Shown piece after piece: positions 10,186-49,118 of a DNA stretch of 64,000 bases. Source of the DNA: a virus. Under the pieces are notes generated by a model, which was given only the letters and a program-made list of their open reading frames with translations, did not search any database and had not been told where the DNA came from. How positions within the stretch are numbered: position 1 is the first letter of the stretch; every line of letters starts with the position of its first letter. The stretch lies in the IMG/VR virus record IMGVR_UViG_3300010965_000427, positions 1 through 64,000 of that record, one strand, 5' to 3'. The position numbers and the translations under genes are program-made.

Positions 10186-10274
10186 GCTATAAAAGATGTA
10201 ATATTATGGACGTATTGGATTAAATTCAATAGCGTTCACCACCGGTGTTTTTTTCTCTGTTTGAGGCTACGAAG

Positions 10275-11609
10275 ATGTCGACACACAATAGAGGTTTGAT
10301 TCGTTGGGCGTTGGAAGAAGAGGGCGAAGTGGAAGATACGACCGAGGCCCTGGCCGCCGACCCCGAGGTCGAAAGTGACGCCAACGAGCTCATGGAAGAC
10401 GACGGCAACATGACGGACATGACTGATACGATCGAAAGCACCGTCGAAGACGCCGGCACCCTGGACGAGATCGGCGACGTCATGGAAGAATCCGTCGAGA
10501 GCGGCGAAGGGCTGTCCCAAGAATCCGCCAAGATCGCTGGAATCGCCATTTCCGCCATCGCCAAGCGCTTAGGCTATCCGGCCAACATCGACCTGATGCC
10601 TTCGATGGAAGCCTTCGGCGCTACCTCCTCGCGTGTTACGGCCACTCGAATCGCCCTTGAGGCCGAGCAATCGCTTGCGACACGAGCCTGGGATGCGATC
10701 AAGCGTGCCGTCACCGCTTTGTACAACATGGTCGCCAATTTCATCGCGAAGATCTTGAGTAGCACGACCCTGCTCGACGCCTACGCCGTCCGGCTTGAGA
10801 CAGCAGTCAAGGCCATCAAGGCTGACAAGCCCAAGAAGGGCGACCTGGAATCGAAGGCCATGGCCCTGGCGTTCGGCGGAAAGAACAACACCGCCACGTT
10901 CGAAAACGCAAAGAGCACGGCCGCCGTCCACAAGTCCCTGGCCGAGAATCTCGAAAAGTTTGGTTCGGCCGCGCAATCCGCGGTTACCAAAATCGACAGC
11001 ATTCTCGCCGAAATTAAGGGCGCAAAGGGCGAAACAAAGCTGGAAGAATTGAAGAAATCTCACGAAGACTTAATGGATGTCTTCGAGAAGTCTGTCGGGG
11101 GCCATGTCACTTCGGACAACACCAGCAGCCGGCTCAAAGGAACAACCAAGATACAAACTGTCGAGGGGCTTGTTCAAGGAAAGAAGCTTCGTGTGATTCA
11201 AAACGACTCTGGAACAACGGTTCAGCTGCGGGTCGAGGTCGTAAAGGGTGAAACTCCTGCCGGAGACCAAGCTCATGGCGATACCCTTTCGCAGAAGCAA
11301 ATGTTGGAACTCATATCTGAAGCCCGGCAGCTTATCGCCGGCAACAAGGCTTTGAAAGCGTCCAATGGCGACGTAAAGAAGCTTCAAGGCAAATTCGAAA
11401 AGGCCATTGATACGGCCATTAAGGGGCTTAACAAAGAAAAGGAAAATGAAAGCGCAAAATCTGAAGCGGCCGTCATGAGCACTGCCAAGAAAACAGTTTC
11501 GGCGATGTCGTCCAGCGTGGCCTCTGTTTACTTCAAGATTCCGTCCTTGAATTACACGGCTGCAAAAGCCCTGCTCGCCTATGTTTCCGCATCCGCGGCT
11601 CAATACTGA
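10275..11609 (+). CDS. abundant internal head/inner-body protein, phiKZ gp93/gp162 family
   Basis: Acidic propeptide; WALEE, GLSQES, PSMEAF, IALEA cleavage motifs; GAGG SD before ATG 10275; strongly GC-shifted codons. Confidence 0.75.
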   Translation: MSTHNRGLIRWALEEEGEVEDTTEALAADPEVESDANELMEDDGNMTDMTDTIESTVEDAGTLDEIGDVMEESVESGEGLSQESAKIAGIAISAIAKRLGYPANIDLMPSMEAFGATSSRVTATRIALEAEQSLATRAWDAIKRAVTALYNMVANFIAKILSSTTLLDAYAVRLETAVKAIKADKPKKGDLESKAMALAFGGKNNTATFENAKSTAAVHKSLAENLEKFGSAAQSAVTKIDSILAEIKGAKGETKLEELKKSHEDLMDVFEKSVGGHVTSDNTSSRLKGTTKIQTVEGLVQGKKLRVIQNDSGTTVQLRVEVVKGETPAGDQAHGDTLSQKQMLELISEARQLIAGNKALKASNGDVKKLQGKFEKAIDTAIKGLNKEKENESAKSEAAVMSTAKKTVSAMSSSVASVYFKIPSLNYTAAKALLAYVSASAAQY

Positions 11610-22224: not shown

Positions 22225-22294
22225 TGAACTGAGTGTTTGATTAATTAGGTTACTGTGGCTAACAAAGGTGACAATAACCTAAATTTTTTTATTA

Positions 22295-22322
22295 AATTAC
22301 AGCCATATATACTTAATATGAG
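22295..22322 (+). promoter_or_regulatory. phage promoter motif
   Basis: CAGCCATATATACTTAATATG after T-run/ATTAAA. Confidence 0.6.
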
Positions 22323-22351
22323 ACAACATTCGGCCCAATGGAAAAATATAA

Positions 22352-27095: not shown

Positions 27096-29201
27096 ATGTT
27101 TTCATTTGGTAATCCCGACGTTAGCCAACATGGCTCTATTATTATAATTAGAAATATCCGTACAAAAATACTAATGAATGACATTAGTAGAATTTGGAAA
27201 ACACAAAGAATTAATTCTAATATGTTTGAAGATATTGGAAGATCGGCTATCAAATTTGAAGCTTTCTTTGCTTTAGAATTTTATTATATTTTAGATTCCA
27301 TCATTTATAATCGTCGCGTAATTTCAAATGTAAGGGTCCTGAGGGCAATACAAAGGCAATTAGAGACAAACACCTGGCTTAAAGCGCTAAATGCTCCTGT
27401 GGCTCCTAGAATCGATTTAAAACGCCTTAATGATCTAACTCTCACATTGTTTCCCTATCAATTAGATTTTCTAGAAAAATATGACAAACAAACACAACGA
27501 TATTGTTTAAATGGAATGCTATTAGGAACTTTGCCAGGAAGCGGAAAAACAGCAACAACTTTGGCATTAACTCATGCTTTAAGCGCTGAAAGAATTATAG
27601 TAATTTGCCCAAAAACAGCAGTAGAAAGAGTTTGGGAACAAAATATTCAGACATTATTTAAAACAAAACAATCTTATTGGTATTCATATTCTGGAAAAAA
27701 ATATGCAAATGAACGATTTGCAATATTCCATTACGAAGCCATTAACAAAGCTATGGATATTATTGATGAATTAAGAAACCCTAAAATTGCTGTTATTTTA
27801 GACGAATCTCATAATCTAACAGAAATGACTTCTTTGAGAACTCAGCTGTTTATTGAGCTCTGCCAAAAACTTAATAGTAAAGATACAATATTGGCATCTG
27901 GCACTCCGATTAAAGCAATAACGTCTGAAATTATTCCTTTATTTCATGTAATAGATCCGCTGTTTAATGATAACGTAGCTACCCGCTTCAGAGCCATTTA
28001 CAGAGGCGATGCAAACAGAGCAACCGAAATATTAACCCACCGAATAGATCAGGTATCTTTTAAGATTGAAAAAGAAGAATTAAAACTCACAGCTCCTATA
28101 TTCAGAAATCTTCCAATCGCCATACCTAATGGAAACGAATACACCTTAGCTTTTATAGGAAATGACTTGGCCGATTATGCAAAAAAACAAATTGAATTTT
28201 ATACAAAACAAAGACCCGCTAATGAAAAAGCTTTTTATGAATTGTTAGATAAAGCTGAACAAATAATTTTATCAAAAAATCAACCAAGAAGCGAATATAA
28301 AAAAGCAATTGAACAAAATGCAAAATATCACACTTTATTAGAACAGGTTATTTTTTGCGATAAGCGAAATAAATTAAGAGATGCTCGGGACGCTATTGTT
28401 TTTTGCAATTCATATGAAAAAAATGTTATAATGGCAGTTTTAACATTAAAAGACGATAGAGTAAGTTTTAAAGAATTAAAAACATTAGTAAAATATATGA
28501 GATTAAAAGTTAGAGGGGAATGTTTAGGCCGAGTGCTAGGCCGTAAAAGAATTGAAGCTCATATGGCAATGGTTCCTTATATAGACTTTGATACAATATT
28601 AAATTCTACTGAAAAAAAAACCGTCGTGTTTACTTCATATGTGGAAGTTGTTGATAAAGCTAATGAAATTTTGCTATCGCAGGGAAATTTTCCAGTAGTT
28701 GTATACGGAGCAGTAAATAAAAATTTAGCAAATTTAATAGATCAATTTGAAAGAGACTCGGAAAAAAACCCATTAATAGCTACATATGCATCTTTATCTA
28801 CAGCTGTCCCTTTGATTATGGCCGACACTATGGTAATTGTTAATTCTCCATTTAGAAATTATATATTTGAACAAGCAGTTAGCCGAATTCATAGATTAGG
28901 CGCAAATACACAGACTTGTATTTATTTATGTTTTCTAGATACAGGGAGTGATCTCAATATAAGTTCGCGTAATGTCGATATACTAAAATGGTCCCAGGAT
29001 CAAGTAGAAAAAATATTAGGTATAGATGCTGTTTTTAAAATTGAAGATTTACCAAATATGGCAGAAATCGATGAACAAGTAACTAGCGGATTAATTCCAG
29101 TTATTGAAGAACTCCATATACCCGATGAGAGTTTAAATAAATTAGAAATAAATTCTGAAAAACTTTTAGAAATAACTCCTTTATGGGTAAATTGGAAATG
29201 A
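27096..29201 (+). CDS. SNF2/DExH-like helicase (phiKZ gp203-like)
   Basis: PGSGKT Walker A, LDESH, ASGTP, QAVSRIHRLG motif VI. Confidence 0.85.
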   Translation: MFSFGNPDVSQHGSIIIIRNIRTKILMNDISRIWKTQRINSNMFEDIGRSAIKFEAFFALEFYYILDSIIYNRRVISNVRVLRAIQRQLETNTWLKALNAPVAPRIDLKRLNDLTLTLFPYQLDFLEKYDKQTQRYCLNGMLLGTLPGSGKTATTLALTHALSAERIIVICPKTAVERVWEQNIQTLFKTKQSYWYSYSGKKYANERFAIFHYEAINKAMDIIDELRNPKIAVILDESHNLTEMTSLRTQLFIELCQKLNSKDTILASGTPIKAITSEIIPLFHVIDPLFNDNVATRFRAIYRGDANRATEILTHRIDQVSFKIEKEELKLTAPIFRNLPIAIPNGNEYTLAFIGNDLADYAKKQIEFYTKQRPANEKAFYELLDKAEQIILSKNQPRSEYKKAIEQNAKYHTLLEQVIFCDKRNKLRDARDAIVFCNSYEKNVIMAVLTLKDDRVSFKELKTLVKYMRLKVRGECLGRVLGRKRIEAHMAMVPYIDFDTILNSTEKKTVVFTSYVEVVDKANEILLSQGNFPVVVYGAVNKNLANLIDQFERDSEKNPLIATYASLSTAVPLIMADTMVIVNSPFRNYIFEQAVSRIHRLGANTQTCIYLCFLDTGSDLNISSRNVDILKWSQDQVEKILGIDAVFKIEDLPNMAEIDEQVTSGLIPVIEELHIPDESLNKLEINSEKLLEITPLWVNWK

Positions 29202-30279: not shown

Positions 30280-30308
30280 AAAAAATGGTCACATATATTA
30301 AAATTACT
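30280..30308 (+). promoter_or_regulatory. phage promoter motif
   Basis: AAAAAATGGTCACATATATTAAAATT. Confidence 0.55.
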
Positions 30309-30340
30309 AATAAACAATTGCAAAGCATAAGAGAGCAATT

Positions 30341-30775
30341 ATGCCTGTCATTTTTAATCTCACATTAACCAATTCAACTCATCTTCAAATTAGCCAAGGA
30401 ATAGTAGATCTGCCTGAAGATAAACTTTTAAAACTTGAAGAAATATTAAAAATAGAGTTATCTCTTCTCAATTCGATTGGACAGCATTATTTATGTAACA
30501 AAATAACTAAATTAATTTTCGAAATAATAATTCCCATTCAAATGGAAAATGCCGAACAACTGCTTTTAAACCAAAGCAAATCTAAAAAAACTCTTGCTAA
30601 TAAAGAAGCGTTTGAAGCTGTAAAACGAGTTTTAGAATGCCACGTCTTCGTTAGCGGCCACGAATTCTTTCCTCTTATGTTAGAACTAGAACGCAGGTCA
30701 AAACAACATAACATTATTGTCCATTACCCACAAATATCCGAAGGCCGTTATATTGGATTTTACCCTCCAATGTAA
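30341..30775 (+). CDS. hypothetical protein
   Basis: 144-aa ORF after promoter motif. Confidence 0.6.
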   Translation: MPVIFNLTLTNSTHLQISQGIVDLPEDKLLKLEEILKIELSLLNSIGQHYLCNKITKLIFEIIIPIQMENAEQLLLNQSKSKKTLANKEAFEAVKRVLECHVFVSGHEFFPLMLELERRSKQHNIIVHYPQISEGRYIGFYPPM

Positions 30776-30789
30776 AATTAAACTACCAA

Positions 30790-31033
30790 ATTAATGGCAC
30801 CGAGCGCCAAAAAGCTTCGGGGATTCGACGGGTTTCAAGTGCCTTAACCCCGCCAGTCGCAGTGGTGCACTCTCCATGGTAATTGGTTCGTGAAAATGAG
30901 CCAACTGCCATTTTGCCAAAACGGTCTGCATCGATAGGCAATGCATCGGTGATGCGACCCTGGCGCTACAGGTAATGGAATAGCGCATTACATGGAATAA
31001 TTCGTCGCCAATTCAGGCCATTAAACGAATTAT
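30790..31033 (+). ncRNA. candidate structured non-coding RNA
   Basis: GC-rich intergenic island with at least five helices; G-U pairs favour the + strand; followed by a terminator. Confidence 0.5.
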
Positions 31034-31054
31034 GAAAGTCAAAAAATAAGTTTT

Positions 31055-31101
31055 TAAACTACTAGAAAAGCCATTGGCTTTTCTAGTAGTTTAATTTTTT
31101 T
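31055..31101 (+). terminator. intrinsic terminator
   Basis: TAAACTACTAGAAAAGCC...GGCTTTTCTAGTAGTTTA + T-run. Confidence 0.8.
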
Positions 31102-31104
31102 ATT

Positions 31105-31178
31105 AAAATATAACTACATATATTTAATATGACACAACCTTACTATGGTAGTAAGAATGTCTTAATTTCACCGGAGAT
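31105..31178 (+). promoter_or_regulatory. promoter motif + leader hairpin copy 4 + SD
   Basis: CTACATATATTTAATAT-GACACAACCTTACTATGGTAGTAAGAATGTCT-...CCGGAG. Confidence 0.75.
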
Positions 31179-31182
31179 CGGC

Positions 31183-32955
31183 ATGACAGAACTATTTGTA
31201 GGGCATTTAAAATTAACTTTTAACGGCACCAATGTGGCATTTTTCGCAGCAGGAGACTATAGAGTAAAATGGGGCGATGGAGCAACAAATGATTTTAAAG
31301 CAAATGAAATTGCTTCTCACACATATTCCAAAAGCCAAATTGCTATTATAGAAATTTCTCCCCTGCCAGGATCAAATTTAACTATTTTAAATTTTAAAGC
31401 CATGTCTGCCTGCAATGTTTGCTTTGTCAAAATTAATGCACAGTGCGAACATTTGGAACTATTAGATTTTGATGCTAGCAAACTAACTACAGTATCTCTT
31501 GGAAAAAATAAAATCAAAAATTTTAGCTGGATGTTTAGTAATTGCTCTGAAGATGTTAACTTCGAAAAACTGTATACCTTAGAAGGACGAGATTTTAGCT
31601 GGATGTTTAATAACTGTTGTAAAATTACCAGTTTCCCATTGCTGGATACTTCCAAAGGAACAAACTTTAATGGAATGTTTCAAAATTGCTCTATAGCTAC
31701 TAGCTTTCCAGATTTGGATACTTCGGCTGGAACAGATTTTAGCTGGATGTTTTTTAATTGTTCTGGAGCAATTAGCTTTCCAAAACTAAATACCTCAGCA
31801 GGAGAAAAGTTTTTAGGGATGTTCAATGGCTGTTATAATGCCACCAACTTCCAAAATATGAATACTTCGGCCGGAATTAACTTTGGTTGGATGTTTGGCG
31901 ATTGTTCCGGAGCTACTAGCTTTCCGGAACTAAATACGTCAAAAGGAGTAAATTTTTGCGGAATGTTTAGCCGTTGCTCTAAAGCCACCAATTTCCCAAA
32001 TCTCGATACCTCGGCTGGAACCGATTTTGGGTACATGTTTACTGGTTGTTCTAAAGCCGTTAGTTTTCCTAAATTGGATACTTCAGAAGGAACAAATTTC
32101 TATAAAATGTTTGCTGGTTGTTTTTTAGCTATTAGCTTCCCAGAACTAAATACATCAAAAGGAAAAAATTTTAGTTTGATGTTTGGCGATTGTTATGAGG
32201 CTACCAGCTTTCCCTATCTTGACACTTCGTTTGGAGAAAACTTTTCAGGGATGTTTTATAAATGTTCTAAGGCCACAGTTTTTCCATGGCTAGATACACT
32301 ATATGGAAAAAATTTTAGCGAAATGTATTTCGGCTGTTACAGAGCAATTAGCTTTCCGGATATAGAAACTCCATTTGGTACAAATTTTAAAAGAATGTTT
32401 CACAAATGTTCTGGCGCGCCCAGCTTTCCAAAAATAGACACCTCAGAAGGAGAAAATTTTAAAGAAATGTTTACTGGTTGTTTTTTAGCTATTAGCTTCC
32501 CAGAACTAAATACGTCAAAAGGGAAAAACTTTTACGGGATGTTTAATGGCTGCTCTAAAGCCACCAGTTTCCCAAAACTAAATACCTCAGCTGGGACTAA
32601 TTTTGCTAGAATGTTCCACGGCTGCTCTCAAGCAACCGGCTTTCCAAAAATAGACACCTCAGAAGGAGAAAATTTTAAAGGAATGTTTAACGGTTGTTAT
32701 GGCGCTATTAGCTTCCCAGAACTAGATACTTCAAAAGGAAAAGACTTTAGCTGGATGTTTAATGGTTGTTTTAGGGTTACCAGTTTCCCAAAATTAAATA
32801 CCCCAGAGGGCATTAATTTTTATCAGATGTTTGGCGGTTGTTCGGGGGCCAACAGCTTCCCAGAACTAAATACGTCATCCGGAAAAAGACTTAATAAAAT
32901 GTTTCCTGGATGCAAAAAAATGCAAAAAGATGAAAACAAACATTTAAAAAAATAA
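31183..32955 (+). CDS. PKD-like domain + ~20 x 24-aa DUF285/BspA-type repeats
   Basis: YRVKWGDG; 20 FxxMFxxC-type units; start reassigned to MTELF after GGAG. Confidence 0.85.
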   Translation: MTELFVGHLKLTFNGTNVAFFAAGDYRVKWGDGATNDFKANEIASHTYSKSQIAIIEISPLPGSNLTILNFKAMSACNVCFVKINAQCEHLELLDFDASKLTTVSLGKNKIKNFSWMFSNCSEDVNFEKLYTLEGRDFSWMFNNCCKITSFPLLDTSKGTNFNGMFQNCSIATSFPDLDTSAGTDFSWMFFNCSGAISFPKLNTSAGEKFLGMFNGCYNATNFQNMNTSAGINFGWMFGDCSGATSFPELNTSKGVNFCGMFSRCSKATNFPNLDTSAGTDFGYMFTGCSKAVSFPKLDTSEGTNFYKMFAGCFLAISFPELNTSKGKNFSLMFGDCYEATSFPYLDTSFGENFSGMFYKCSKATVFPWLDTLYGKNFSEMYFGCYRAISFPDIETPFGTNFKRMFHKCSGAPSFPKIDTSEGENFKEMFTGCFLAISFPELNTSKGKNFYGMFNGCSKATSFPKLNTSAGTNFARMFHGCSQATGFPKIDTSEGENFKGMFNGCYGAISFPELDTSKGKDFSWMFNGCFRVTSFPKLNTPEGINFYQMFGGCSGANSFPELNTSSGKRLNKMFPGCKKMQKDENKHLKK

Positions 32956-33019
32956 CCAACGCAAAAAATAAAAAATAAACTGCTAAAGTTGCTATAACTG
33001 AAGTGGTTTATTTTTTATT

Positions 33020-33050
33020 AAAAAATAATCTCATATACTTAATTTGATTC
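33020..33050 (+). promoter_or_regulatory. phage promoter motif
   Basis: AAAAATAATCTCATATACTTAATTTG. Confidence 0.55.
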
Positions 33051-33098
33051 TATCTCATCGTGTCGGCGGGGTCACTAACGAGCTAACTGGAATTTAAC

Positions 33099-36393: not shown

Positions 36394-38346
36394 ATGCCAA
36401 GAACTTTACACTCCCCAGAATACAATGTAGTGTCTCGAAGCGTGGTGGATATCGCCAGAGGAGGGACAAATGCAGAAACAAGCGACGCGGCAAAACACTC
36501 CCTTCGAGTTTTAGGAAGGCGGTCTCGCGATATTCCGTTTGGGTACGGGTCTCTTAATAGTTTAATACAATTAAAAGAAGAACAAATTCCGGCCAATTTA
36601 AATCAATTTATAAACATAAAAGGACCTTTAACGTCGGCGGCTGGAGCCCAAACAACTCACACTATAACAAATTTTGATATTGGAACGCTATATTTATTTT
36701 CAACAATATCTGGAACTATTACACATACGGAAGAAGTAATTACCTATACAGCCCCCTCCCTTCCAGGGGTAGCCGGCTTTTATATTAATGAAAAACCCTT
36801 TTACGTAACCGTAACTGGGGACGGAGTTGTGCAGCCGGCGATTACGTCGCCTTATGATAAAGCTACAAAACAATACAAATCGGTAGTTATTACAAGCAGT
36901 GCTTTTGTTTGCAACAGCACAATAACAGATTCGCATTTGTCATCGACATGGCAGCTTTCTGACACTCCAACATTCGATGTAATTAGGCAAAATAGCACTA
37001 GAAGTACCACAAATAAAACAACATGGACTGTTGTCAATTTAACAGAAAATACGACTTACTATGTTCGAGTTCTGCATACTGGAAATATAAACGGGGACAG
37101 CTTATGGAGCGGGGTGCGTTCTTTTACTACAAAATCAGGCTATTACCCACAAGTAGAAACATTTGAAATCGCTTCCGAAGCACTTCAAGCGAATGACCAA
37201 TTTGGGACATCGGTGGCTTTAAATGGGGTAGGAACATTATTTGCTGGCAGTGCTCCCACGGCAAACGATAGTTTTGGAATACCTTGCGGCGTTGTTTATA
37301 CATATTGGTTAAGTCACGGCACAACATGGGTTGGCTCAGACAGCTTAAAGCCATCTTCCCCAGCTATTGATCAACTATTTGGTTTTAGTATATCAATAAG
37401 TAATGATGGAAATACACTTGTAATTGGATCGCCAGGCCATAATGCAAATACTGGCGCTGTGTATATATTTACTCGTGCAAATAATGTTTGGACTCAATCG
37501 GTCATCTTATTAGCAAACGATTCTTCCCCTGGGGATATGTTTGGATATTCAGTGGAAATTTGTGGAAACGGAGCTACCATCGCAGTTGGTTCTATAAACG
37601 ATAGCAATCTTAATGGGACAAATTCAGGAGCGGTTTATATATTTTCATTTTCAGGCACAGCTTGGACTCAGCAAGCAAAGATATTAGCTATTTCAGCGGG
37701 AGACGGCTGGGCGTTTGGTACAAATGTAGCGCTAAGTTATGACGGAAATACTCTTGCCGCAAGCTATCCAAAGAAAACAATCAATGCCGTTGTTAATCGC
37801 GGGGCAGTGTCTATATATACACGTTATCAAGCAACGTGGACAGCAAATAGAGACGTTATTGATTCTGGTGGGGTAGCAAATGATTATTTTGGTAGCTCAT
37901 TAGCAATAAGCAGCACTGGAAATATTTTATTTGTTGGTAGCGGGTTGGCAGACACAACTCACGGAATAAATTCAGGCGTAGTTAGAGTCTATACCTTAAA
38001 TGGAGCCGATTGGGTATTTCAGGCCCAGTTACTTGGTGCAGATACAAGAACTGGGGATAATTTTGGAACATCAATTTCGTGTAATAACGACGGCTCTATT
38101 GTAATGATTGGAGCGCCATCAGCTGCAAATGTTTCTAGAAGAAATGCTGGGGCTAGCTATATTTTTACACAAGATGGAAATGTTTGGTCAGAAAGACCAA
38201 AGCTATTAGCCAATGATTCGACCGCCTATTCTTTCTTTGGCAATGCATTAAAATTATCGGCTGACGGAAATATGGCCGTCATATGTTCCTTTAGGCACCC
38301 ATTTAGCTATATTGATAATGCTGGAGCAGCATACATATTTAATTAA
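36394..38346 (+). CDS. putative receptor-binding/tail-fibre protein with FN3 and FG-GAP beta-propeller
   Basis: IARGGTNA fibre motif; NLTENTTYYVRV...SLWS FN3; seven FGxSVAxxxDG..GAVYIF blades. Confidence 0.75.
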   Translation: MPRTLHSPEYNVVSRSVVDIARGGTNAETSDAAKHSLRVLGRRSRDIPFGYGSLNSLIQLKEEQIPANLNQFINIKGPLTSAAGAQTTHTITNFDIGTLYLFSTISGTITHTEEVITYTAPSLPGVAGFYINEKPFYVTVTGDGVVQPAITSPYDKATKQYKSVVITSSAFVCNSTITDSHLSSTWQLSDTPTFDVIRQNSTRSTTNKTTWTVVNLTENTTYYVRVLHTGNINGDSLWSGVRSFTTKSGYYPQVETFEIASEALQANDQFGTSVALNGVGTLFAGSAPTANDSFGIPCGVVYTYWLSHGTTWVGSDSLKPSSPAIDQLFGFSISISNDGNTLVIGSPGHNANTGAVYIFTRANNVWTQSVILLANDSSPGDMFGYSVEICGNGATIAVGSINDSNLNGTNSGAVYIFSFSGTAWTQQAKILAISAGDGWAFGTNVALSYDGNTLAASYPKKTINAVVNRGAVSIYTRYQATWTANRDVIDSGGVANDYFGSSLAISSTGNILFVGSGLADTTHGINSGVVRVYTLNGADWVFQAQLLGADTRTGDNFGTSISCNNDGSIVMIGAPSAANVSRRNAGASYIFTQDGNVWSERPKLLANDSTAYSFFGNALKLSADGNMAVICSFRHPFSYIDNAGAAYIFN

Positions 38347-39997: not shown

Positions 39998-40017
39998 GTT
40001 ATGTTCGATTAGATTGA

Positions 40018-40076
40018 TTTAAACACTGTGCGACTAAAGTGAAAACTTTAGTCGCACAGTGTTTAAATTTTTTTTA
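40018..40076 (+). terminator. intrinsic terminator
   Basis: TTTAAACACTGTGCGACTAAAGT...ACTTTAGTCGCACAGTGTTTAAA + T-run. Confidence 0.8.
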
Positions 40077-40081
40077 TTAAA

Positions 40082-40150
40082 ATATAGGCACATATATTTA
40101 ATATGACACAACTTTACTATGGTAGTAAGAATGTCTTAACCTGTTTGGAA
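40082..40150 (+). promoter_or_regulatory. promoter motif + leader hairpin copy 6
   Basis: GGCACATATATTTAATAT-GACACAACTTTACTATGGTAGTAAGAATGTCT. Confidence 0.75.
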
Positions 40151-46701: not shown

Positions 46702-48918
46702 ATGAACACAATATTCACAAAAAATTCCCGTCGCAGCCTGGCCCCTTCGCCGACCGACAAGAACGTGGAGCTCTATAGCTCCGTGGTAAACGGAAACAAT
46801 TCCTTCGGGAGTTCAAAGTTGACGCGTGTAGCGTTAGCAATGGAAGGCATGAATGACAGCGATTACGGCCTGCTAACCAGTTCGGCTTCCGAGCTTTCTA
46901 TCGCGATTGAGTCGTGTATTGAACAACTCGGTTTAACAAAGTGCACCATTCAGCCCCAAATCGACGCCGCCGTAGTAGCCGGCATGATCGCAGGTGATCC
47001 GCAAGCATTTTTCAGATTCGAGCCTAAGCCGCTTGGCGTGGCGACAGAATCCATGGCCATCATGGCCCAAACGGCATTTGATGCCGTTGAACGGCGAATG
47101 ATTTCGACGGAAGCGTACGACGAACGGGACAACAAAAACACAGTTGTCTATTCGATTGAATACAATATGCAATCCGCCCGCCAAGACGAATTTGGCGAAG
47201 CCTGGTTCCCGACGATTGTCATTACGCCGGACCAAGTCGGGTTCGACGTAACTGTCCGAATTCTGTCCGTGATGAACGATTTCAAGCGAAGCATCACCGG
47301 CGAAATTGATAACTTTGACCGTAAAAATCTCATTCGAGCGATTGCCGACCCCACCATTCTGAAGAACGACGGCACACGAGTAATACCAGTTGCTCGCGCT
47401 CAGGCCGCCTCGAAGTTCGTCAGGCCGACCATTATTCCAGTTCGAACAATTTTACACGAAGGCGAATCGATTGTCACAGCTCCTTTGGCATTCGGCCAAA
47501 CATTCAGCCTGCTTGGCATTTCCCAGACCGACACGCTTCTGGCAAATGGCGCAATGGACCTCACCGACACACTCGATACCGGGTCGGTGCTGGAAAACAT
47601 CTATGTTCGAGTTGGCGGGGTCGTTGGCGGCCCCACCCCGCGAATTGGTGATGTTTTAAAATTCAATGTGACCAATCTTCCGTTAAGCAATTTTACAAAT
47701 GCAATTCAAGGCAGCTATCGTTTGATGCTGCTGAATTTCCAAACAAGCAGTATGCTGATAAATAAGAATACAAAAAATAACGACGGCAGCGCATTGATCG
47801 ACCTTATTTCCGTTGTCACCAACGACCTGATTGTCCGGCTGGCTATCAATGTCACCGGGTCTATCAACATCGAGACTGCGGAAACGGTTCTGTATGGCAA
47901 TCCAATTAGCGTGGCGTCCGTCCAAAATGCTGCTGGAGAGCTTCTGGACTTAACCCAAGAACCGGCAGCATCACTGGTTTCTTTATTCGCGAACGGCGAG
48001 CCCATCGGTTATGACCTGAAGGCTTATCGCACCAACATGAACCGTCGTCAGCGCGGCCAGCTGATCAATACGACGCAATACACTCAGCGCTACCCGGTGA
48101 CTCTGCGCAGCCCGATTACGGCAATTCATCCTGTCAACACAGACGGCCAAACCGATACATCGGATCTGGCAAGCCTGATAACCGCCACTCGGATTCGGAC
48201 GTCAAATGCAAGCGTTGGTGCGTTGATCGCTCAAGCGACCGCCCTGGGCGAATATGTTGACGCACGAGATTCGGCCGGCGTCGGCCCGGATGTCATAGGC
48301 GTCGGCCGGTTCTATGTGAAGCCTACGTTCTTCTATGAATCCGTAGACGTTCTGGCTCAAATCAATTCGGTAAAGACTTCTGAAAGAATTGCAGACATCC
48401 AGGCTGTTTTGGTAAACAAGCTTCGAGACTATGCCTACAAGATGTATCGCGATTCCGAGTACAAGGCAGCGGCAGACGCCTTGGCCGGCGGCCTTGCTCC
48501 TACGCCGGTTGTGCTGATCGGAACCGACCCAATCATTGCTCGTTATTTGTGCGTCTCCGGCGATCTGCGAACTCTCGGGGCCTCTGAGTTTGACGTGCGA
48601 ATCGTCCATACTCTGGATAACCGTGTAAAGGGAAAGATATTTATTTCATTTAGTGTCTTCGATGAGACACGAAATACCACCATTAATCCTTTGAATTTTG
48701 GCAATATGGCGTGGTCTCCTGAAATCACGGTTGTTCTGCCTATTTCCCGCGATGGCCAAATTTCTCGAGAACTGGCTGTCCAGCCACGTTTCTCCCACGT
48801 AGTCAATCTCCCGGTGATGACAGTCCTTTCCGTCGTCGGTATTTCCGATACGCTGGACAAGATCCCGCTCACAATCGCCACGTCAATCGTTGCTCCGATA
48901 CATACTGTTACACCATAG
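46702..48918 (+). CDS. major capsid protein (phiKZ gp120-like)
   Basis: 738 aa; propeptide with AME/ATE/STE sites; ARQDEFGEAWFPT and RTNMNRRQRG motifs; GC-shifted codons. Confidence 0.9.
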   Translation: MNTIFTKNSRRSLAPSPTDKNVELYSSVVNGNNSFGSSKLTRVALAMEGMNDSDYGLLTSSASELSIAIESCIEQLGLTKCTIQPQIDAAVVAGMIAGDPQAFFRFEPKPLGVATESMAIMAQTAFDAVERRMISTEAYDERDNKNTVVYSIEYNMQSARQDEFGEAWFPTIVITPDQVGFDVTVRILSVMNDFKRSITGEIDNFDRKNLIRAIADPTILKNDGTRVIPVARAQAASKFVRPTIIPVRTILHEGESIVTAPLAFGQTFSLLGISQTDTLLANGAMDLTDTLDTGSVLENIYVRVGGVVGGPTPRIGDVLKFNVTNLPLSNFTNAIQGSYRLMLLNFQTSSMLINKNTKNNDGSALIDLISVVTNDLIVRLAINVTGSINIETAETVLYGNPISVASVQNAAGELLDLTQEPAASLVSLFANGEPIGYDLKAYRTNMNRRQRGQLINTTQYTQRYPVTLRSPITAIHPVNTDGQTDTSDLASLITATRIRTSNASVGALIAQATALGEYVDARDSAGVGPDVIGVGRFYVKPTFFYESVDVLAQINSVKTSERIADIQAVLVNKLRDYAYKMYRDSEYKAAADALAGGLAPTPVVLIGTDPIIARYLCVSGDLRTLGASEFDVRIVHTLDNRVKGKIFISFSVFDETRNTTINPLNFGNMAWSPEITVVLPISRDGQISRELAVQPRFSHVVNLPVMTVLSVVGISDTLDKIPLTIATSIVAPIHTVTP

Positions 48919-48950
48919 ACCTCTCACTACTGAATCTGTAGGTTAGGTCT

Positions 48951-49008
48951 CCTCCCGCCAGACCAGTTTAGGCTGGTCTGGCGGGAGGCGTATTTTTTTT
49001 TGTTTTTT
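48951..49008 (+). terminator. intrinsic terminator of capsid gene
   Basis: CCTCCCGCCAGACCAG...CTGGTCTGGCGGGAGG + T-run. Confidence 0.85.
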
Positions 49009-49035
49009 TACAATAAAATTAAATAAAGCCTATAT

Positions 49036-49064
49036 AAAAAAATAGTCGCATATACTTCATATGC
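49036..49064 (+). promoter_or_regulatory. phage promoter motif
   Basis: AAAAAATAGTCGCATATACTTCATATG; followed by a different hairpin (TTTGGTTTA/TAAACCAAA). Confidence 0.65.
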
Positions 49065-49118
49065 TGTTTGGTTTAGTTTGTAAACCAAATTACAAATAAC
49101 AAATAAAGGTAAAAACCA

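Follow-up and report, generated by a model that had tools for sequence, protein, structure and literature searches.

A GC-rich non-coding block in a phiKZ-like jumbo phage genome looks like an insertion into a terminator hairpin

We analysed a GC-rich block of 267 nucleotides (nt), positions 30787–31053, in a 64,000-nt stretch of viral DNA (the window), which covers positions 1–64,000 of the 121,727-nt IMG/VR record IMGVR_UViG_3300010965_000427. The record is listed as linear, with a completeness of 45%, and to judge from its genes the source is an uncultured phiKZ-like jumbo phage. The block is bracketed by a direct repeat, lies between the parts of a split hairpin, deviates in base composition from its surroundings and carries neither a coding signature nor that of a known RNA. 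With moderate confidence, we read it as a recently captured foreign non-coding segment that would be transcribed as the 3′ end of the message of the preceding gene, an ORFan of 144 amino acids (aa), and would persist as a moderately structured RNA.

The evidence for an insertion lies at the two ends of the block. A 9-nt direct repeat, TTAAACTAC, is found at 30778–30786 and again at 31054–31062, and its right copy is made up of the first 9 nt of the 5′ arm of the terminator that closes the region. The left copy and the four A's preceding it can pair without a mismatch with the last bases of the 3′ arm and the first four T's of the T-run, leading to a perfect 13-nt inverted repeat between 30774–30786 and 31086–31098. 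When 30774–30786 is joined in silico to 31063–31098, the result is a perfect hairpin of 23 base pairs (bp) with an energy of −29.1 kcal/mol, and it extends into the TAA stop codon of the ORFan. Because removing the block and one repeat copy restores such a hairpin beside the stop codon, the block looks as if it had been inserted into a terminator already present at the site, splitting its 5′ arm and duplicating 9 bp. The six other long perfect terminator hairpins on the + strand of the record are located 19–37 nt past a stop codon, compared to 278 nt for this one. Both the direct repeat and the split hairpin are new: they are absent from the initial annotation, a reading made from the letters alone, which had described 30790–31033 as a multi-helix candidate non-coding RNA.

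The 13-nt complementarity is improbable by chance, as a complement of at least 13 nt to the 3′ arm arose in only 2 of 3000 dinucleotide shuffles of 30700–31053. The same match, perfect from the gap start to the 3′ arm of the terminator and its first U's, could also be used by a cis-acting attenuator, in which 30774–30786 vies with the 5′ arm of the terminator for the 3′ arm and the fold of the block sets read-through into the downstream DUF285 gene. We consider this very unlikely. The local hairpin has 19–20 perfect pairs in adjoining arms (−26.1 kcal/mol), whereas the rival partner is 299 nt away and provides 13 A/U-rich bp. Furthermore, the DUF285 gene has its own promoter-like unit past the terminator, as do its paralogues, no Rfam riboswitch or leader family matches, and an insertion accounts for the complementarity without any extra assumption.

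The block also stands out by its composition. GC is 0.52 at 30800–30999 compared to 0.27–0.37 in the flanks, and in 150-nt windows the local peak of 0.547 is about 3 standard deviations over the genome mean (0.341, standard deviation 0.071). The initial annotation had seen an intergenic island of roughly 50% GC in an AT-rich genome, ending at a strong terminator right before a repeat-protein cassette. This description holds: the record has 34.1% GC, the ORFan and the DUF285 gene are found on either side of the island, and the DUF285 gene comes next after the terminator hairpin and its T-run. GC-rich islands are common in this genome, and the others lie in coding genes. The strongest of them (51–54% compared to 34%) are an internal head protein gene (10245–11606, matching the phiKZ internal head proteins) and the major capsid gene (46702–48915, matching the PhiKZ major capsid family with E 7.2e-183). 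High GC goes with structural genes in this phage genome.

Next, we looked at public DNA and RNA libraries. Every sampled word of the 1.4-kb stretch 30300–31700 is present in five freshwater DNA runs, which belong to two studies (2018 and 2022) and contain the stretch completely. A third study provides two metatranscriptome runs with 16–18% of these words; the rest of the stretch is uncovered in both, and these uncovered parts are not evidence of absence. The presence of an RNA was among the checks named in the initial annotation, and two contigs from these runs, X6 and X7, cover 30704–31056 at low depth. X6 reads across the left junction, extending 83 nt to one side of it and 198 nt to the other. 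The DNA runs flagged as possible origins of the window DNA belong to another study than this contig, so the left junction is not an assembly artefact. X6 begins 72 nt inside the ORFan, which suggests that the block is co-transcribed with it.

Taken together, these results point to the following course of events. Foreign non-coding DNA of 267 nt would have been captured into the 5′ arm of a palindromic terminator just past the ORFan stop codon, and the capture would have duplicated the 9 bp of the repeat. Possible mechanisms are transposition by some mobile element or a staggered break in the palindrome that took up filler DNA. No sigma-70-like promoter site was seen ahead of the block on the + strand, while a core resembling the promoter-like motif of the phage can be read by eye about 50 nt upstream of the ORFan start. 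Since the block shows no promoter of its own, transcription would come from the ORFan side, with the block as the 3′ end of the ORFan transcript, and would stop at the surviving 19–20-bp hairpin. The 3′ piece, in which the block is rich in GC, has moderate structure and ends at the terminator hairpin, may for these reasons outlive the AU-rich coding part. A longer-lived 3′ piece would in turn explain why the RNA libraries contain the block and not the flanks, and the contigs agree with an RNA in which the block is present and which persists longer than its surroundings. We lean towards the view that this RNA is a passenger acquired recently; at most, it may stabilise the transcript as a 3′ tail.

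Nonetheless, several points weigh against this interpretation. Neither the record nor any collection searched yielded a relative with an empty site, a donor or another copy of the block, and the insertion is read from one sequence. The block has no terminal inverted repeats, so its ends point to no known transposition mechanism; local alignment of the two ends yields at best a subterminal pair of 8 nt, with arms beginning 5 nt from the left end and 30 nt from the right end. TTAAAC, the first 6 nt of the direct repeat, also opens the hairpin at 40017, so the repeat is in part a feature of this hairpin family. The 13-nt complementarity could be a selected long-range pairing, and it would be somewhat unexpected for a densely packed phage genome to keep 267 useless bases. 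Finally, RNA support is thin, with two contigs of depth 2–2.5 from one study that carry no strand or end information, and carry-over of DNA into the libraries is possible. As a separate matter, a sediment contig (X8) that diverges before 31095 was considered as an empty site and rejected: its loose end is the same as the hairpin in the paralogous unit near 40.0 kb.

We then examined whether the block folds better than expected for its composition. With the terminator included, the fold z-scores are −6.0 on the + strand and −5.1 on the − strand, and these strong values stem from the terminator hairpin. For 30786–31040, which leaves the terminator out, the z-score is −2.21 on the + strand (5 of 200 shuffles fold equally well) and −1.71 on the − strand (14 of 200). 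With only this value on the + strand, the multi-helix fold proposed in the initial annotation did not hold up as a structure beyond chance. That annotation had listed six local helices. All of the quoted arms are present, yet only three of the six are favoured in the Boltzmann ensemble; TTAATGGCAC/GTGCCTTAA, GGTCTGCATC/GATGCGACC and GCGCTA/TAGCGC each pair with P ≤0.12. The proposed alternative end-to-end pairing fares similarly, as its arms exist and its P is 0.4 or 0 according to the context folded. Overall, the ensemble favours four helices, at 30800–30820, 30830–30850, 30876–30911 and 30997–31033.

The hairpin at 30876–30911 is far stronger on the + strand (−18.1 kcal/mol) than on the − strand (−10.3 kcal/mol), and this bias argues for an RNA-level structure on the + strand. 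The best 40-nt window of the block (−18.7 kcal/mol) is equalled in 22 of 400 shuffles, and the structural evidence for the block is for this reason modest. A small hairpin at 30795–30809 and some others are slightly better on the − strand. We also observed a 9-nt perfect complementarity between TCCATTACC (30720–30728), in the 3′ end of the 144-aa open reading frame (ORF), and GGTAATGGA (30971–30979), in the block. Both arms of this pair are inside the X6 contig span, and the match may be due to chance.

The initial annotation had also called for a homologue search. We ran it, and found no homologue of the block in phage, plasmid, Escherichia coli, IMG/VR, metagenome or sampled bacterial sequences, collections that may lack near-identical records. 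Blastn returned no match in phage records, none in E. coli genomes and a single 39-nt chance match in plasmids. Among metagenome contigs (JGI), a 22-mer of the block and a 33-mer of the terminator gave 0 matches each, and of two further 18-mers of the block searched in IMG/VR, one had 0 matches and the other a single chance match, in a Gly-rich coding sequence. The proteins on either side are no better connected: neither the ORFan nor the DUF285 protein has a close relative in IMG/VR, and the ORFan has no Pfam or PHROG family and only itself as a match among 5.8 billion proteins searched. It is also encoded on a contig of 218,742 nt and on five others.

The SNF2 helicase of the phage, on the other hand, has hundreds of relatives in phages of 230–320 kb, and a helicase of 69% identity was also found. 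We searched within 10 kb of the best 80 of these loci in IMG/VR (33–48% identity) using nhmmer and blastn, and nothing block-like was found; one match, with E 0.56, is inside a 507-aa ORF. For 50 of the 80 loci we extended the search to the entire records; the best E was 0.061, and the recurrent short matches there are in GC-rich coding sequence. No relative was found in 802 sampled bacterial genomes (401 from the phylum of a Persicitalea genome and 401 from the phylum of a Vogesella genome), where one match with E 5.6e-4 in the AT-rich tail is at the level expected by chance over 401 genomes. We also noted that three homologues of the helicase (window 27096–29201) in related phages have 1033–1042 aa compared to the usual ~690 aa, and that their precomputed Pfam domains include PF14528. 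Both features suggest that the helicase contains inserted sequence, possibly an intein.

These searches bear on two readings that would give the RNA a function. The first is a functional, lineage-specific gene for a trans-acting non-coding RNA, a non-coding 'moron' gained by the same insertion, stable in infection and acting on host or phage targets. We regard it as unlikely, though not negligibly so. The block is found in two metatranscriptomes and its flanks are not, and elsewhere in the genome GC enrichment is typical of highly expressed genes, among them the major capsid gene. A + strand-specific hairpin of 15 bp with G-U pairs and a GAAA loop would suit such an RNA, the site is one of only three internal ORF-free gaps of at least 200 nt, and the stretch is kept with all its sampled words in the five DNA runs of 2018 and 2022. 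Furthermore, PMC11512511 reports intergenic small RNAs for phiKZ-like phages. Yet no homologue was found, and hence covariation lends no support; the fold z-score amounts to only −2.2, and the best hairpin is equalled in those 22 of 400 shuffles; no promoter of its own was seen, and the X6 contig starts inside the upstream ORF; and no partner protein is found nearby, the upstream ORFan being without family.

The second is a mobile cassette with a structured non-coding RNA gene, spreading among giant phages into terminator palindromes with a 9-bp duplication and providing a stable functional RNA in natural infections. Donor or sister copies would then have to be outside the searched sequence, for example in the remaining 55% of the genome or among near-identical records that the collections may lack, and we hold this reading to be improbable.

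The word GGATTCGACGGG recalls the 5′ part of many transfer-messenger RNAs (tmRNAs), and the initial annotation had pointed to it as a tmRNA-like feature. This signal did not survive the controls. The tmRNA 5′ word GGAUUCGAC(G/A)GG is indeed present at 30821, but it is non-specific. The 14-mer GGGGATTCGACGGG is found in at least 116 viral loci of IMG/VR, where the similarity to the block stops at the word, and ARAGORN detected a tmRNA in none of the 116 loci listed. An extended 18-mer has 18 matches in GTDB (one genome each of 185,579 species), close to a rough, uncomputed estimate of chance, and none of these 18 genome loci holds a tmRNA according to ARAGORN. A 26-mer around the word has 0 matches in IMG/VR, and a gapped pattern around it finds 5 unrelated GC-rich coding loci there. 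We therefore judge the word to be, in all probability, a chance match.

Searches for known RNA classes agree with this. ARAGORN called 0 tRNA or tmRNA genes in the window and in the 121.7-kb record, with no tmRNA at the 80% or 70% thresholds; with introns allowed, the 70% threshold gave three poor tRNA calls (introns of 14, 46 and 184 nt) that we disregarded. None of the three + strand translations contains a tag-like frame, that is a resume codon followed by a hydrophobic C-terminus before a stop. This is consistent with the earlier remark that a tRNA-like CCA end and a tag are lacking. At the gathering score, Rfam gave no match, including to the standard and permuted tmRNA, riboswitch and leader families. 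With E up to 10 and 801 nt searched, there was no tmRNA, tRNA or Y-RNA among 19 weak matches, 17 of which are on the terminator hairpin, the other two being a thermometer (30521–30573) and a fly long non-coding RNA. The block alone gave, with the same limit, one chance match and again no tmRNA, tRNA or Y-RNA.

A tmRNA identity is accordingly rejected, as there is no tRNA-like domain, tag frame, covariance-model match or ARAGORN call. No SmpB, TROVE or reverse-transcriptase (RVT_1, PF00078) gene was found in the 45%-complete record. The initial annotation had placed the RNA in no known class, which the Rfam and ARAGORN checks bear out, and had suggested a decoy, an RNA antitoxin or retron mimic, or a ribozyme. 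Nothing that we tested points there, and neither a TROVE nor a reverse-transcriptase gene is found in the record.

A looser version of the idea is a mimic of tRNA or tmRNA that engages host tRNA or trans-translation factors, for example through GGGG...UUCAAGU...CCCC-GCCA at 30819–30855 or as a permuted tmRNA. The word at 30821 would fit such a mimic, as would a T-loop-like UUCAAGU and two GCCA words near short G/C stems, picked out by eye from the familiar consensus. But ARAGORN and Rfam are negative even at relaxed thresholds, no tag-like frame is present, the 116 listed viral loci and the 18 genome loci with the word are all without tmRNA, and SmpB and TROVE were not found in the record. The ensemble moreover prefers GGGTT/AACCC and the CCGAGC hairpin, which consume the bases that the mimic needs. 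The mimic is thus largely refuted and, of all the explanations weighed here, the hardest to credit.

The last explanation to consider is that the block is not an RNA element but a decayed protein-gene fragment or a DNA-level site (origin, packaging or recombination). In most cases foreign filler DNA is coding, the − strand of the block has a stop-free frame of 72–73 codons, and the hairpin at 30795–30809, with some others, is slightly better on that strand. However, this 72-aa frame has 0 matches among 1.84 billion representative proteins, three frames of the block gave no Pfam family, and tblastn of the six frames against the record and 226 fetched loci gave nothing better than E 0.05. A stop-free run of 73 codons is found in 2066 of 5000 shuffles (41%). 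On these grounds a coding remnant was rejected. As for a DNA site, the block contains no iterons or tandem repeats, its sole internal direct repeat being an 8-nt word found twice, and the RNA contigs and the G-U hairpin on the + strand favour an RNA reading. We consider the fragment or DNA site quite improbable. The searches support the initial annotation in regarding the island as non-coding; the annotation had named a fragment of a bacterial coding gene as the finding that would speak against it, and the protein and translated searches revealed none.

The features of the locus are listed in Table 1. The ORF-free gap between the 144-aa ORF and the DUF285 gene (30776–31128, 353 nt) is the longest of three internal gaps of at least 200 nt without an ORF of at least 80 aa in the 121.7-kb record. 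The other two are window 48919–49118, which contains the terminator hairpin (48951–48988) that follows the capsid gene, and record 116578–116839 (262 nt, 35% GC).

Table 1. Features in and around the block (window coordinates)
Feature	Position	Strand	Basis and details
144-aa ORFan	30341–30775	+	ORF list; stop codon TAA at 30773–30775
Union of RNA contigs	30704–31056		X6 = 30704–30984, X7 = 30818–31056; 100% identical to the window
Putative left remnant of ancestral terminator 5′ arm, AAAATTAAACTAC	30774–30786	+	Repeat search; holds the left direct-repeat copy
Putatively inserted GC-rich non-coding block, 267 nt	30787–31053	+	46.8% GC overall, core ~52%; single copy in the 121.7-kb record
Small hairpin CCGAGC/GCT-TCGG, one bulged U	30800–30820	+	Pair probabilities 0.4–0.97
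tmRNA-like word GGATTCGACGGG, 12 nt	30821–30832	+	Located in the sequence; 14-mer and 18-mer controls
Helix GGGTT/AACCC, absent from the list of the initial annotation	30830–30850	+	Favoured in the ensemble
Best hairpin, 15 bp with G-U pairs, 1x1 internal loop, GAAA loop	30876–30911	+	Pair probability ~1
Hairpin ATAATTCGT/ACGAATTAT	30997–31033	+	Inverted-repeat search; probability 0.5–1.0
Present intrinsic terminator hairpin, perfect 19–20-bp arms	31054–31094	+	−26.1 kcal/mol (19-bp stem); T-run 31095–31101
GTAGTTTAATTTT, perfect complement of 30774–30786	31086–31098	+	Inverted-repeat search
AT-rich promoter-like unit and gene start	31095–31140	+	Copies at 40069–40112 (93%) and 22282–22327 (85%)
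DUF285 (BspA-like repeat) gene, 3′ of the island	31129–32955	+	Pfam PF03382, E 4.4e-29

The terminator is part of a composite unit that recurs in the window, consisting of a long perfect hairpin, a T-run, TTTTTTTATTAAAAT..., a CATATAT-type core and the gene start ATGACACAAC. Such units are found at 22250–22327, 31054–31140, about 33000–33098 and 40017–40112, and those at about 22.3, 33.0 and 40.0 kb have no intervening block. In the same part of the window, amid DUF285 and pentapeptide repeat genes, a 650-aa protein (36394–38343) contains five FG-GAP repeats (PF14312, E 1.6e-50).

If the capture took place as proposed, the locus would provide a clean, datable case of a giant phage acquiring non-coding DNA: a break in a terminator palindrome, a 9-bp duplication, and new sequence that at once becomes part of a transcript. 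It would also illustrate that GC-rich intergenic islands with many helices are not necessarily ancient RNA genes in AT-rich phages, since neither the tmRNA-like word nor the many visible helices nor the strong z-score withstood the controls. If this RNA turned out to be functional, it would represent a lineage-specific phage RNA caught soon after its acquisition, and would be useful for studying the origin of regulatory RNAs.

Several known systems can be compared with the block. Like the morons of tailed phages, a concept from the Hendrix-lab literature, it is a segment of deviant composition between two phage genes and is found in RNA libraries; unlike them, it has no credible ORF, no promoter of its own was found, and it uses a resident terminator. 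Miniature inverted-repeat transposable elements and other small non-autonomous mobile elements, such as the MPME elements of mycobacteriophages, resemble it in being small (here 267 bp), non-coding and flanked by a direct repeat, here of 9 nt, as expected of a target-site duplication. The block differs from these elements in having no terminal inverted repeats, and no second copy was found in the record or the collections searched.

The likeness to tmRNA (SsrA) is limited to the 12-nt word, which resembles the 5′ part of many tmRNAs, whereas the tRNA-like domain, the tag frame and any covariance-model match or ARAGORN call are missing. In contrast to retron non-coding RNAs, the block has an ORFan and a DUF285 gene as neighbours, and PF00078 has 0 matches in the record. 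The 13-nt inverted repeat might recall the a1/a2 repeats of retrons; its right arm belongs to the stem of the terminator, and a split hairpin fits better. As for riboswitches and attenuators, the block has no aptamer or leader family known to Rfam, and the alternative pairing that an attenuator requires would set 13 distal, A/U-rich bp against a local stem of 19–20 bp and −26.1 kcal/mol.

PeSL (promoter-early stem-loop) cassettes of T4-type phages have reportedly been treated by Comeau and colleagues in 2014. As described by Arbiol et al. 2010 (PMC2839356), these cassettes combine a terminator stem-loop with an early promoter, in a variable, ORFan-rich region, and mark the gain and loss of cargo. 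A composite of terminator stem-loop and promoter-like sequence likewise recurs here, at about 22.3, 31.05, 33.0 and 40.0 kb. The phage, however, is phiKZ-like rather than T4-like, and the cargo is non-coding. Moreover, the cargo here is inside one hairpin arm with a 9-bp duplication, rather than between two recombining PeSLs, and its left boundary consists of only 13 nt of one arm.

Finally, small RNAs derived from intergenic or untranslated regions are described in the reports on 201phi2-1 (PMC11512511) and phiKZ (PMC8244752). Such RNAs have mapped ends and one is conserved across genera, whereas no relative of the block was found and it carries the signature of an insertion. What the block appears to share with them is its setting, a non-coding transcript beside a terminator in a phiKZ-like genome.

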